Position numbers and translations under genes: made by a program. The notes beneath the pieces were generated by a model. It was given only the letters and a program-made list of their open reading frames with translations, had not been told where the DNA came from and did no database searches. A stretch of DNA of 64,000 bases from IMG/VR virus record IMGVR_UViG_637000207_000006; one strand, 5' to 3'. Below are positions 1-46,386 of the stretch, piece after piece (positions within the stretch are counted from its first letter, which is position 1; each line of letters opens with the position of its first letter). Source of the stretch: a virus.

Positions 1-1648
1 ACACAGCATACTGATTGCCTCCCGATTCCGTCATGGCAACACTACGTAACAAACCCTCCGGTAACCCGAACTGCTGCTCAAGTTGTGCTAATTTTGGTGA
101 TAGCCAACCCAGTAATTTCATGCCGGTAGTGTTCGGTGACATTTCAGCGGCTGCGACTTGAGGAACGAGCGAATCAATCAGTTTATTAATTGAATCGGTC
201 AGCTTATCTAACGCGGCTTTTAACCAATTATTGCTGTATTCTAGCCGCTGTTGTCGTTCATCCTCGGCCCGAATGATACGGTCATTTTCGCTGCGCTTTT
301 CTTCCTTTTTGACCTCTTTGACTACGGTCGTATCTGGCTTAGAGGTTTTACCATCCAGTTTTGCCTGATAGGCTTCATACTCTTTTTTACTAAAAAAGGG
401 TGTCCAGTCGCTTGCCAGATACAATCCATATGAATCAAGTGTATTTTTTGTCTCTTCCCCAACAATCGAAGTCGCAACTGACTCCACAGGATCATATAAC
501 GCATATGTGATAGCGCCATATATTCCGGCTTTCCCGGCAATCCCTTTTCCCGGTAACCCGCCGCCTTTCCCCATTTTCAGCATGGACGAAGCCACGCGAT
601 AAATTCCCCATAACCACCCCGCAAACTTCAACCCGATCAGACCAATGATGACATTACCCCAACCGCCTACCGCATCTGCGGCCTGATTAGCGACTGAAAT
701 AATAAAACTCATCTTATCGAGAAAACCACTGACCGCTTTTTTAATCTCTTCTGGGTGCTTATTCATCCAATCAGCTAGGTTTTTTAGCCAGATATTGAAA
801 TCATTGATATATGGTAAAAGGGCATTAAACAGAATGTAGCCTGTTTTCTCAAAACTCTGGCTTATCTCTGTCCACTGTTCACGAAAACGACGCGCGGCGG
901 CAACAGATTTATCATCCACACCCGAATTAGCTGTAAATTTATCCACATCTTTGAGTACGTGACCGGATGAGAACCACTGTTGCGCGGCGTACCCGACCCC
1001 AAGTTCACCACCGTAAGCTTGCTGTTGATCTTTATTAAGTCTGGGAAAAACACCGCTCAGCTTACGCATGATAGATTCGGTGCTTTCTGAGGCAATATCA
1101 ATATCGACACCCGCTTGTGATGCCGTTTTTAACAGCGTCTCAAGAGCCGGATCAAGCGCAACACCTGATTTTAGTCGGGCTTTAGCATCATTAATGCGTG
1201 AAAATGCCCCCACAATCTCATTTGCGCTGACACCAAATGCTTGACCTGCTTTTGTCCAGCCATCAAGCGCTTTAGCCGACATGCCGAACGCATCAGCGGC
1301 AGTACTTAACTGATTGAGATTGCCGGCAAAACTGGTCACAAAACTTTTCAGTCCACCGAGTGAGACCGTGACACCCGCCAAAGCCAAGATCTGACTCTTT
1401 ATGCTGGAAAAGAAAGAGGAAGCTTTCTTTCCTGCCGCCTCCATTTCTTTTGCCACTTTTTCGGTTTTCTTACCGGTTTTGTCTAATGATTTGCTGGTTT
1501 TCTTTTCACCATCATTAAACGAGTCAATCAGTTTTTGCATAACCTGAGCCAACCCACCGATCCCGGCAATCACTGCGGTTTCACCTGCGCTAAATTCAGC
1601 CGCATCAAGCCCCAGCGTTATAACAAGTTCATCTATAATGTTTGCCAT
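1..1648 (-). CDS. Tape measure protein with lytic transglycosylase (SLT) domain, 3' end runs off the window
   Basis: Hand translation from ATG 1648 (MANIIDELVITLGLD...) stays open to position 1 and ends in LEQQFGLPEGLLRSVAMTESGGNQYAV, an SLT catalytic-Glu motif. It is absent from the ORF track because its stop lies outside the window. Confidence 0.9.
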   Translation of the reverse strand, partial: MANIIDELVITLGLDAAEFSAGETAVIAGIGGLAQVMQKLIDSFNDGEKKTSKSLDKTGKKTEKVAKEMEAAGKKASSFFSSIKSQILALAGVTVSLGGLKSFVTSFAGNLNQLSTAADAFGMSAKALDGWTKAGQAFGVSANEIVGAFSRINDAKARLKSGVALDPALETLLKTASQAGVDIDIASESTESIMRKLSGVFPRLNKDQQQAYGGELGVGYAAQQWFSSGHVLKDVDKFTANSGVDDKSVAAARRFREQWTEISQSFEKTGYILFNALLPYINDFNIWLKNLADWMNKHPEEIKKAVSGFLDKMSFIISVANQAADAVGGWGNVIIGLIGLKFAGWLWGIYRVASSMLKMGKGGGLPGKGIAGKAGIYGAITYALYDPVESVATSIVGEETKNTLDSYGLYLASDWTPFFSKKEYEAYQAKLDGKTSKPDTTVVKEVKKEEKRSENDRIIRAEDERQQRLEYSNNWLKAALDKLTDSINKLIDSLVPQVAAAEMSPNTTGMKLLGWLSPKLAQLEQQFGLPEGLLRSVAMTESGGNQYAV

Positions 1649-4711: not shown

Positions 4712-5082
4712 TATTGTTCCCCACGCTGCAATGTAACAGCGAATTTGCACCAATTCGGCCACTCTTCCAAAATCTGCACTATCAACCACTCTTCACCATT
4801 AATAATCAACAGATCACCCCCTTGCTGTCTGGGGCGGTTGACGGCATTAAAATTGCCATTCACATAAGCCGCTTTGAGCATGCCCTGAATATTCAAGCCG
4901 TTCGTATGTTGTAGATCAGTAAAAGTCAGTGGCTGGATTTGTGCGGTAACGGGTGTTGTAATGTAGCGCGGGACTTGCTTACCACTGGGTGCAATATCAT
5001 ATCCCACACTTACCCGTATCTCTCCAGGTGAGTGAGGATTAACAACCCCAACAGCACCAGATACAATATTGTGCAGGTTCAT
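4711..5082 (-). CDS. Head-closure / head-tail joining protein
   Basis: 123 aa, MNLHNIVSGAVGVVNP, in the neck gene cluster. Confidence 0.6.
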   Translation of the reverse strand: MNLHNIVSGAVGVVNPHSPGEIRVSVGYDIAPSGKQVPRYITTPVTAQIQPLTFTDLQHTNGLNIQGMLKAAYVNGNFNAVNRPRQQGGDLLIINGEEWLIVQILEEWPNWCKFAVTLQRGEQ

Positions 5083-5537
5083 TCGTTCCCCTCATCAATC
5101 ACATAATCAACACTGTTCAGCATGTGTTTGGTGTGACGTAGCGGCGCATCAAATCCCTTTTTAGCTATAGTGGATTTTTTATTAGCCGGTGAAGTGAAAG
5201 AACGAATAGATTGTTGAATTTGCCCCTTGATAACTTCCCCGGTCATCCGTAACGCTGCATCCCCATTCATATCGTTAGCACTCAGGCCCTGTGCAAGCAC
5301 ATCACCCCATTCATTAGCATGTTCGTTGATAGTGTTACGAAAAAACGGACGGGGTCGCCTATTACGCCTCGGATCGCCAATCTCGTTACTAATTGCCACC
5401 ATTGCAACTGAGGTGCCATCGGGATAAGTCGCGTCTTTGAAAAAACCAACCCGCAATTTTTGGCCTTCACCCACTCTTTTAGCTAATTGCTTTAAGTAGC
5501 GTTTTGCTGCATCACCGCCCTTGATACTGTTCGACAT
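5079..5537 (-). CDS. Tail completion protein (HK97 gp10-like)
   Basis: LRVGFFKDATYPDG...RPRPFFR...KKGFDAPLRHT motifs; start at ATG 5537. Confidence 0.65.
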   Translation of the reverse strand: MSNSIKGGDAAKRYLKQLAKRVGEGQKLRVGFFKDATYPDGTSVAMVAISNEIGDPRRNRRPRPFFRNTINEHANEWGDVLAQGLSANDMNGDAALRMTGEVIKGQIQQSIRSFTSPANKKSTIAKKGFDAPLRHTKHMLNSVDYVIDEGNE

Positions 5538-44415: not shown

Positions 44416-44853
44416 TTAACCTAAGCCAATAGAACGGGATACAAACTGTAAACCTATTCCGAGAGTTTGGCTAATTAAAGACCTTAATGCTTCTTTACTT
44501 TCAGTCTTCAGTGTTTCCTTAATACGATCACCTAATGGGGTTTCTAAGCTGTCAGGGATTACTTTAAGAACTTCTAAACCTTCAGCCGTTAATACGGCTC
44601 TATGACAACCTTCAGAGCTCATAGTCCCTGCCAAATAACCATTCGTTATGAGCCAATCCACTGTATCCAGAAAAAATCTATGATCTTCTACTGTAGTACA
44701 AAGTTCGTCAGAGTATGTTCCATCAGAATATTGAAGGGGTTCACCGATTACCTCTATAGATAAAAGATCTATCTTTAAAGGAAATGACTCATATAGTTTC
44801 CCAAATATAATACCTACAATTTCATTAAACTTTTCTATGTTTGTAGTAGACAT
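44416..44853 (-). CDS. Hypothetical protein, winged-helix-like
   Basis: 145 aa from ATG 44853; DWLITNGYL...AVLTAEGLEVL; AT-rich. Confidence 0.65.
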   Translation of the reverse strand: MSTTNIEKFNEIVGIIFGKLYESFPLKIDLLSIEVIGEPLQYSDGTYSDELCTTVEDHRFFLDTVDWLITNGYLAGTMSSEGCHRAVLTAEGLEVLKVIPDSLETPLGDRIKETLKTESKEALRSLISQTLGIGLQFVSRSIGLG

Positions 44854-44870
44854 AAATATCCTATTTGTTT

Positions 44871-45299
44871 CTAAAGTTTCAATTTCAATGTTCCACCAGG
44901 TACATTCTGTTGATCTAAACAAACAGATTGGCAAGCTGATTTAGATATGGATAAAACTGTTTCGTTATCCTCTATATCAAGAAAACAATTATTTCCATGA
45001 GCCATATAATCATTAGACAGTTTGGCATTTTCATCAATATGAAATTTGATAGTTGTGCGTGAAGGATAACTGTTTTCGTAAACTGTGATGTCAGTAAATT
45101 GATCAGAGTATTTATCCAATCCTGGGCACATTTCCCTAATAGTTGGCAATAATTTTTGGACTAACGGATTATCTGTTTTGACTATAAATTTCAATGTAGA
45201 AATAGTAGATGTATCTGTTATTTCCTGTGTATTCATTTCACCACAACCAAATATCAGAAATACGAAAATTATCGTAACTGAACCGTGTAACGTCAACAT
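44871..45299 (-). CDS. Putative lipoprotein
   Basis: MLTLHGSVTIIFVFLIFG-C lipobox-like signal; four further Cys. Confidence 0.6.
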   Translation of the reverse strand: MLTLHGSVTIIFVFLIFGCGEMNTQEITDTSTISTLKFIVKTDNPLVQKLLPTIREMCPGLDKYSDQFTDITVYENSYPSRTTIKFHIDENAKLSNDYMAHGNNCFLDIEDNETVLSISKSACQSVCLDQQNVPGGTLKLKL

Positions 45300-45336
45300 A
45301 GATGTTATCCCCAAAGTGAAATGATAAATAATAAAT

Positions 45337-45681
45337 CTACAATTGATGTTTCCGTAATATAGATACTATAACGAAAAAACACCCCCCCATCCCCAGTGCA
45401 GCTCCTGCCTGCCATTCTTCTGGACCAAACTTAAAAAGTAAAAGAAATATAGCTCCTATACAAAAAACAGCAACAATCAATATCAACGCAAATCGTAGAT
45501 CTATTTCCTGATTTCTACGTTGTTGTTCCGCATCTTCAAACTCAGCTTCACAATGTCGGCAATATTGTCGACCTGGTGTCAAATATCGCTGTTCACAATA
45601 TGGGCATGGCTCTGGGCCATTATAATTATACTCATGATAATCATTAGCCGCGACCCGATTGTTATCCCCGTTAATTTTCAA
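45337..45681 (-). CDS. Zn-ribbon two-TM membrane protein
   Basis: TTG start 45681 with GGAGGT SD; CPYC...CRHC; two C-terminal hydrophobic segments. Confidence 0.72.
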   Translation of the reverse strand: MKINGDNNRVAANDYHEYNYNGPEPCPYCEQRYLTPGRQYCRHCEAEFEDAEQQRRNQEIDLRFALILIVAVFCIGAIFLLLFKFGPEEWQAGAALGMGGCFFVIVSILRKHQL

Positions 45682-45716
45682 ATGAGACCTCCATTGCAAC
45701 TACATTTTTACCACAA

Positions 45717-46115
45717 CTACTTTTTATGCTCGTTATAGTCCCTACCTGCAATTCGGTTTCCATTACCTGTTATTTTTTGCTTTGTTGAACTAACGTTCGA
45801 GAGTCCTGACTGTAAGGCCGCTACTGCAGCAACCTTAAGAGCTAATGGTGCTTGTCTATAGTATTGAACCAACTCAGATTCATCTGGAGATAATACAACA
45901 TTGGAGGAGGATGTACCTGTAAGAATAAACTGAACATTCGCTCCAGCCAATGCAAATGCAACCCATACATCACCACCAGGAACGGCTACACCACGTTCGT
46001 ATTTGCTCCACATCTCACGTGATACACCACACATTTGAGCCGCCTCATCTTGTTTTAAAGACAGGCGTTTTCTTTCTTTTTTTAGACGAGCCGCACAAAG
46101 AGAATCAAAGTTCAC
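45717..46115 (-). CDS. Prophage repressor (XRE HTH)
   Basis: RLKKERKRLSLKQDEAAQMCGVSREMWSKYERG; divergent from the early operon. Confidence 0.88.
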   Translation of the reverse strand: MNFDSLCAARLKKERKRLSLKQDEAAQMCGVSREMWSKYERGVAVPGGDVWVAFALAGANVQFILTGTSSSNVVLSPDESELVQYYRQAPLALKVAAVAALQSGLSNVSSTKQKITGNGNRIAGRDYNEHKK

Positions 46116-46154
46116 AAATCCACCATTGACAAAGAGAATAAAAGTTCACATAAT
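46095..46154 (+). promoter_or_regulatory. Early promoter with two 22-bp direct repeats (operators)
   Basis: TTGACA 46126 - 17 nt - CATAAT 46149; repeats ACAAAGAGAAT(C/A)AAAGTTCACA at 46095 and 46129. Confidence 0.75.
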
Positions 46155-46200: not shown

Positions 46201-46386
46201 ATGACACCGGAGAAAATCAAACAGCGCTTTCAGCAAGACGGTATCACAGTTACTCAATGGGCAAACGAGAACGGTTATTCGCGCGAGGCTGTATACCGCG
46301 TTCTTAATGGGCAATCCAAAGCTAATTACGGAAAAGCCCATGAGATAGCCGTAAAACTTGGCCTAAAAACTCCAAATATAGGCTAA
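46201..46386 (+). CDS. Cro/Ner-analogous DNA-binding protein (BcepMu gp16 family)
   Basis: 61 aa, ITVTQWANENGY...GKAHEIAVKLGLK. Confidence 0.85.
   Translation: MTPEKIKQRFQQDGITVTQWANENGYSREAVYRVLNGQSKANYGKAHEIAVKLGLKTPNIG

Follow-up and report, generated by a model that had tools for sequence, protein, structure and literature searches.

Matched peptides at the facing ends of a prophage repressor and a membrane-anchored partner: a possible link between lysogeny control and the cell membrane

The described systems closest to the one reported here are the amyloid-signalling pairs, comprising fungal HET-S/NWD2, the bacterial Bell/NLR pairs with the motifs BASS1-10, and Bab/Agp (BASS11) of E. 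coli prophages. In these systems a short G/N-rich motif lies at the C-terminus of one protein and at the N-terminus of the adjacent gene product, several motif families exist that are matched within each pair, and the motif is disordered in the monomer (BASS motifs, bioRxiv 10.1101/2020.01.06.895854; Bab/Agp in E. coli, bioRxiv 10.1101/2024.11.07.622273). The same arrangement of motifs is found in the stretch analysed here (the window), 64,000 nucleotides of viral DNA from IMG/VR record IMGVR_UViG_637000207_000006, where the immunity repressor of a B3-like prophage and the small membrane protein encoded by the next gene, hereafter the partner, carry copies of one 16-residue motif at their facing ends.

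Two other kinds of system bear a likeness to this pair. In phage lambda the genes co-transcribed with cI in the lysogen, those of RexA and RexB, include one for a membrane protein, and RexA reportedly interacts with CI and affects the passage from lysogenic to lytic growth. In Mlc/PtsG and sigma-E/RseA, a membrane-anchored protein with a cytoplasmic docking element holds a soluble DNA-binding regulator. A literature search found no paper tying amyloid-signalling motifs to helix-turn-helix (HTH) or prophage repressors. The sensing that leads to exit from lysogeny is poorly understood in Mu/B3-like and P2-like prophages that have no LexA-type cleavage domain, and a co-varying pair of peptides in repressor and membrane partner offers a concrete handle on this question.

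The shared peptide and the two proteins that carry it

The repressor, an immunity-type XRE protein of 132 amino acids (45717-46115, minus strand), was recognised from the list of open reading frames (ORFs), Pfam, the PHROGs repressor families and an AlphaFold2 model. Its tail consists of a 16-residue motif (45729-45776, minus strand) with the core G-x-G-N-R-I-A-G-R-D-Y-x-E, followed by HKK and the stop codon. After a spacer of 35 nucleotides (nt; 45682-45716), the partner gene (45337-45681, minus strand) encodes a protein of 114 amino acids with the second copy of the motif at residues 2-17 (45631-45678, minus strand), in which nine of the 16 positions are identical to the repressor tail. We refer to the form present here, N-R-x-A-G-R-D-Y/F, as type A. 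The partner starts with TTG at 45681, and a Shine-Dalgarno sequence, GGAGGT (45687-45692), lies in the spacer 5 nt before this start, which is also the one used by public gene calls (P0001, 114 amino acids). Behind the motif the partner has a CxxC...CxxC zinc ribbon (residues 26-44; 45550-45606, minus strand) and, according to a hydropathy scan, two transmembrane (TM) segments at residues of about 64-82 and 91-109 (45355-45492, minus strand). The initial annotation had reported the shared motif, the start codon with its ribosome-binding site, the ribbon with two TM segments and a repressor devoid of a LexA-type peptidase domain; coordinates, alignments, hydropathy and domain searches bear out all of these points.

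The two copies use the same codon for three of the nine identical residues and different codons for the other six, and match in 29 of 48 nucleotides, so that the similarity is kept at the protein level and does not reflect a recent DNA repeat. A recent DNA duplication or a recombination linker was rejected on these codon data. Three loose versions of the motif, searched in all six frames of the 5.69-Mb genome, matched solely these two adjacent ORFs. With the 30 C-terminal residues of the repressor as query, a six-frame scan of the locus placed the best match at the N-terminus of the partner (score 55, z 7.5), a score reached by none of 100 shuffles.

Pfam matches of the repressor are confined to HTH_31/HTH_3; no S24 peptidase domain was found with Pfam, and the protein is thus not a self-cleaving repressor of the LexA or lambda CI type. 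The AlphaFold2 model shows a confident HTH (residues 1-66), a confident helical hairpin (77-105) and a flexible tail (105-132) with a predicted local distance difference test score of 43-53. In tblastn, residues 22-132 of the protein align with the repressor of B3, ORF18, at 35% identity (E 4e-7), and the repressors of B3 and Ps59 are homologous to that of the window with the tail included. The G/N-rich tail is kept in repressor homologues down to about 40% identity; the remaining homologues have a different, apparently helical C-terminus.

For the partner, Pfam gave weak matches to Zn_ribbon_3 and DUF7501. The ribbon cysteines C26, C29, C41 and C44 are invariant in two alignments (A2 and A4), and in A4, the alignment of the partner's zinc-ribbon family, the motif residues G5, N8, R9, A11, D14, Y15 and E17 are invariant as well, equal in conservation to the zinc cysteines. 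A search of 1.84 billion representatives with the profile of this family returned 92 members, and nearly all true members have the N-terminal motif, mostly of type A and in some cases of the type B described below. A word-indexed protein search recovered only two relatives of the partner, and the ESM Atlas gave solely unnamed clusters with scores below 0.9.

Recurrence and co-variation of the motif pair

To follow the pair beyond the window, loci were fetched by means of the repressor from 401 genomes of the order and from species-representative genomes, and each whole locus was scanned in six frames with the last 30 residues of its own repressor. In about 16 of these repressor-first loci the best match of the tail was the N-terminus of the next gene product, encoded on the same strand 39-180 nt past the repressor stop (L001, 2, 4, 11, 14-18, 25, 36, 37, 40 and 47), and weaker matches were seen in L003, 19 and 43/44. 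The same scans gave no tail match for repressors with a helical C-terminus. Phage B3 itself has the pair: a type A motif closes ORF18 and another opens ORF20, whose product has two TM segments, and Ps59 has the same arrangement. The Ps59 partner (L059:2860-3456) carries an internal G/N-rich segment in addition to its N-terminal type A motif. An internal segment of this kind, located after an N-terminal extension of about 30 residues, is also present in the membrane proteins that come after repressors with a helical C-terminus in L020-L024 and L030-L031.

An independent control started from the motif and not from the repressor family. A DNA pattern for G-N-R-I/V-A-G-R-D-Y/F returned 62 loci from IMG/VR, 55 of which have the match 13-18 residues before the stop of a frame of 127-217 codons (shorter where cut by contig ends), and every one of these 55 tails is accompanied by a second copy at the start of a downstream ORF, mostly 51-89 nt past the stop. 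Five further matches are N-termini of zinc-ribbon, two-TM partners of the window partner's own family; a preceding repressor with a matching tail is seen for four of them and the fifth (L099) lies at a contig edge. Only two of the 62 matches are unpaired, one at a contig edge and the other probably a chance match. The check named by the initial annotation, whether B3/BcepMu-like prophages have the motif in both genes, is therefore strongly positive in B3, in Ps59 and in the repressor-first and motif-first loci, and the motif is clearly not missing from one of the two proteins in most homologous loci. Many of the viral loci are close relatives, so that fewer independent cases exist than the counts imply.

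The E. coli copies of the module are chromosomal and belong to a P2-like prophage, where the genes run from repressor through membrane protein and BRCT protein to integrase, with a replication endonuclease nearby. The BRCT-domain protein encoded between partner and integrase is found at L122:7134-8000. A search of plasmids gave a single match, and the module is accordingly not plasmid-associated.

The motif itself varies in kind. Besides type A there is a type B, G-Q-h-a-a-N/D-I-y-N, a RHIM-like type C, G-h-Q-h-G (L037, L040), and several singleton types. When 19 repressor tails were scored against the 19 partners, the mean was 47.6 for cognate and 24.6 for non-cognate combinations, and the observed diagonal sum was reached by none of 20000 permutations. 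Partner bodies of about 200 residues with a tail anchor are homologous across loci with type A (L002, L016) and loci with type B and other motifs (L003, 15, 17, 19, 25). In the same way, the repressor cores nearest to that of the window (L015 and L017, 68-71% identity) have type B tails, and the distant cores of B3 and L013 (30-34%) have type A tails. The motif type therefore matches within a locus and tracks the core of neither protein. Two loci have an additional motif-bearing gene. In L014, and in this locus alone, a third copy is found in a protein of 61 residues (946-1131, minus strand) encoded in the divergent, presumably early lytic, operon; by way of this tag the protein could work as a small antirepressor. 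In L025 the genes of the first partner and of a lipoprotein-like protein are followed, 1.3 kb downstream of the repressor, by a gene (4726-5118) for a second membrane protein that has the motif type of the locus at its N-terminus.

The bodies attached to the N-terminal motif are of at least five unrelated architectures, nearly all of them membrane-anchored; partners devoid of a TM segment occur in L014 and L037, and several partners are small two-TM proteins. Such unrelated and mostly anchored bodies indicate a shared design in which a cytoplasmic motif at the N-terminus is combined with a variable domain and a membrane anchor. In loci other than that of the window, the partner most often belongs to a family of tail-anchored proteins of about 209 residues (L060:12087-12716; also L002, L003, L015-L019 and L025). 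The AlphaFold2 model of a 209-residue member has a low-confidence N-terminal region (1-40) that holds two motif-like segments in tandem, then a helical domain modelled with confidence (49-167) and a TM helix at the C-terminus, and it gave nothing significant with Foldseek against the PDB. The central helical domain of this family matches NCBIfam PRK10715 at E 2e-17, short of the curated cut-off. This entry is Flk, a flagellar regulator of E. coli and Salmonella that is known to be tail-anchored (PMC6794478) and whose N-terminal domain is the part that resembles the partners. Judging from this sequence similarity, chromosomal Flk may be related to the prophage proteins. The window partner, with its zinc ribbon and two TM segments, shows no similarity to Flk, has no NCBIfam match and does not belong to that family. 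Apart from the Flk-like match, neither the window partner nor six other partner types have an informative family in Pfam, PHROGs, PADLOC or NCBIfam.

Setting in the immunity region

The repressor gene is divergent from a Ner-like gene (46201-46386, plus strand; phrog_925, E 8e-30) that is syntenic with B3 ORF17, and an early promoter-like site with an 11/12 match lies between them on the plus strand (46126-46154). Genes for an IclR-like HTH protein and a DUF3102 protein come after the Ner-like gene (Pfam, PHROGs), and those for an rve-domain transposase, an AAA_22 B-like ATPase, GemA and Mor lie farther on. The order of the plus-strand genes is that of phage B3 ORF17-ORF13. The pair is thus located in the immunity region of a transposable, B3-like prophage, and both homology to B3 ORF18 and synteny place the repressor in the B3-like (Beetrevirus-type) immunity module.

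No terminator was found in the 35-nt spacer, and the arrangement of the two genes suggests that repressor and partner are probably co-transcribed. In the beetrevirus Fc02 one lysogenic mRNA carries the repressor and its downstream accessory gene, and exclusion genes are common in lysogenic operons (PMC9936078). Fc02 may be taken, by analogy, as a single precedent in a relative and for co-transcription alone, its accessory gene not being equated with the partner. Two more genes lie past the partner on the same strand (44416-45314, minus strand), the first for a protein of 147 residues with a lipoprotein-like signal peptide (44871-45314, minus strand; phrog_10002) and the second for one of 172 residues (phrog_2266). 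The lipoprotein-like gene possibly belongs to the same lysogenic operon as repressor and partner. Because small lipoprotein genes also come after the partner in B3, L003 and L004, the genes past the partner may form a lysogenic conversion or exclusion operon.

Possible functions and comparison with known systems

Copies of the motif thus stand at the facing ends of adjacent genes; selection acts on their protein sequence, they are found again in many phage lineages and they switch type together. The partner, with few exceptions, is anchored in the membrane and has the motif on the cytoplasmic side, at its N-terminus. Such a recurring, co-varying pair suggests that the lysogeny switch is physically connected to the cell membrane in a way not described before. 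The most economical explanation, to which we give a probability of about 0.45, is that the repressor tail and the partner N-terminus are matched docking peptides coupling the repressor to its membrane-anchored partner. In AlphaFold2 monomers both motif regions are of low confidence beside well-folded domains, and the two peptides, disordered alone, would pair directly. Pairing would likely take the form of short beta-strands or rungs stacked on each other, since two copies in tandem are found in some partners. Part of the repressor would in this manner be held at the membrane partner or be converted by it. Repressor availability, and with it the choice between staying in lysogeny and leaving it, would then depend on the state of the partner in a phage that has no LexA-type cleavage domain. 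The effect could be sequestration, inactivation or stabilisation of the repressor, or neutralisation of the partner by the repressor. As a further, conditional step the partner might sense envelope state or superinfection and gate induction, as the initial annotation had proposed.

Several observations weigh against direct docking. The repressors of L026, L033/L034 and L042 have G/N-rich or bactofilin-like tails for which no matching motif was detected in the flanking 3 kb; these may be exceptions, or their partners may have diverged past ungapped detection. Within type A the specificity of the pairs is slight, cognate identity being 57.6% versus 54.8% in shuffled pairs, a value reached in 2 of 5000 shuffles, and even this could stem from sequence relatedness. 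The tandem motif copies of the 209-residue partner are not folded into a hairpin in the monomer model, and a search for longer proteins found no fusion of repressor and partner, which is weak evidence. Repressor and partner are probably made together and constitutively, so that any regulation of their interaction would require a further input. Finally, with its many conserved charged residues (N-R-x-A-G-R-D-Y-x-E) the type A core might just as well be a peptide recognised by a third protein.

According to this last alternative, which we consider unlikely, both peptides would be handles for one other protein, such as a protease or adaptor of the ClpXP, Lon or FtsH type or a phage antirepressor, and the partner would compete with the repressor or deliver it without binding it directly. 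A conserved charged and polar core is what is expected of a recognition motif, and the lysine-rich residues in which the repressor tails usually finish, together with the disorder of both motifs in the monomer models, are in agreement with such a role. In phage Mu, control of the repressor and of MuA is exerted by way of C-terminal signals for ClpX. The distribution of the motif types speaks against a common reader: Enterobacterales phages have types A and B, and Pseudomonas phages have type A and a type B-like form. With different types mixed within the same host groups a host factor is unlikely as reader, and one encoded by the phage would have to vary in step with the pair as its third member; across the loci, no further gene linked to the motif is conserved.

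It is quite improbable, in our estimate, that the pair is a module akin to toxin-antitoxin (TA) or abortive-infection systems, in which the disordered repressor tail would neutralise a membrane-active partner and loss or inactivation of the repressor would free the partner to damage the membrane, resulting in addiction, exclusion or help in lysis. The layout is that of type II TA operons, with an XRE-HTH protein having a disordered C-terminus followed by a small downstream protein, and the HTH of the repressor gives weak matches of the MqsA and HipB antitoxin type. The small two-TM partners and the frequency of exclusion genes in lysogenic operons (PMC9936078) fit this explanation too. It is at odds with the commonest partner, a Flk-like helical domain on a single tail anchor and not pore-like, and with the partners that have no TM segment. 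Moreover, no match to a known toxin family was obtained for the downstream gene in Pfam, PHROGs, PADLOC or NCBIfam, and a shared motif is not a feature of known TA pairs.

A more extreme form of motif pairing, to which we attach very little probability, is an amyloid or prion-like pair: on a membrane or envelope cue the partner would nucleate a cross-beta fold that templates the repressor tails, and the irreversible aggregation of the repressor would commit a non-SOS prophage to induction. If this were true, amyloid signalling would extend from immune cell death to the lysis-lysogeny switch, and the diversity of motif types would prevent cross-talk of co-resident prophages. The absence of any function, with the motif a chance match or the relic of a local duplication, is practically negligible as an explanation: the motif is short and 9/16 identity alone is weak evidence, but a chance origin is ruled out by its uniqueness to two ORFs in the genome and by the shuffles and permutations, and the near-universal recurrence in the motif-first sample, the synonymous divergence that indicates protein-level selection and the joint switching of type across unrelated partner bodies all stand against it.

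Because both the classic phage B3 of P. aeruginosa PAO1 and prophages of E. coli carry the co-varying pair, it can be approached genetically, and its motif types could serve as a simple marker for annotating immunity modules. Beyond the position of the motif at facing termini, its matched families and its disorder in the monomer, the likeness to the amyloid-signalling pairs includes the two tandem copies of some partners, which resemble the two rungs of HET-s, and the G-h-Q-h-G core that the motif of L037 and L040 shares with RHIM/BASS3. The differences concern both proteins. The C-terminal motif is here attached to an XRE HTH repressor and not to a pore-forming or membrane-targeting death effector of the Bell, HeLo or Bab type, and the N-terminal motif belongs to a small membrane-anchored protein and not to an NLR/STAND or TPR sensor, in agreement with the lack of any match to NACHT, NB-ARC or TPR for the window partner in Pfam, NCBIfam and PADLOC. 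The type A motif of the window is also shorter (about 16 residues) and more charged than the amyloid-signalling motifs, and the predicted output would be lysogeny control in place of cell death. Since neither protein falls into the defining classes, the pair is treated as one that may work like the amyloid-signalling pairs and not as a member of them; should its peptides template as amyloids, amyloid signalling would enter transcription control.

The lambda Rex proteins bear no sequence relationship to the pair (no PADLOC match) and share no terminal motif, and Rex has a separate cytoplasmic sensor. Mlc/PtsG and sigma-E/RseA differ in relying on folded domain interfaces and not on a duplicated terminal peptide, and to our knowledge neither controls a prophage repressor. 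The repressor and its partner would, if their peptides dock, represent a new wiring of a genetic switch to the cell envelope.
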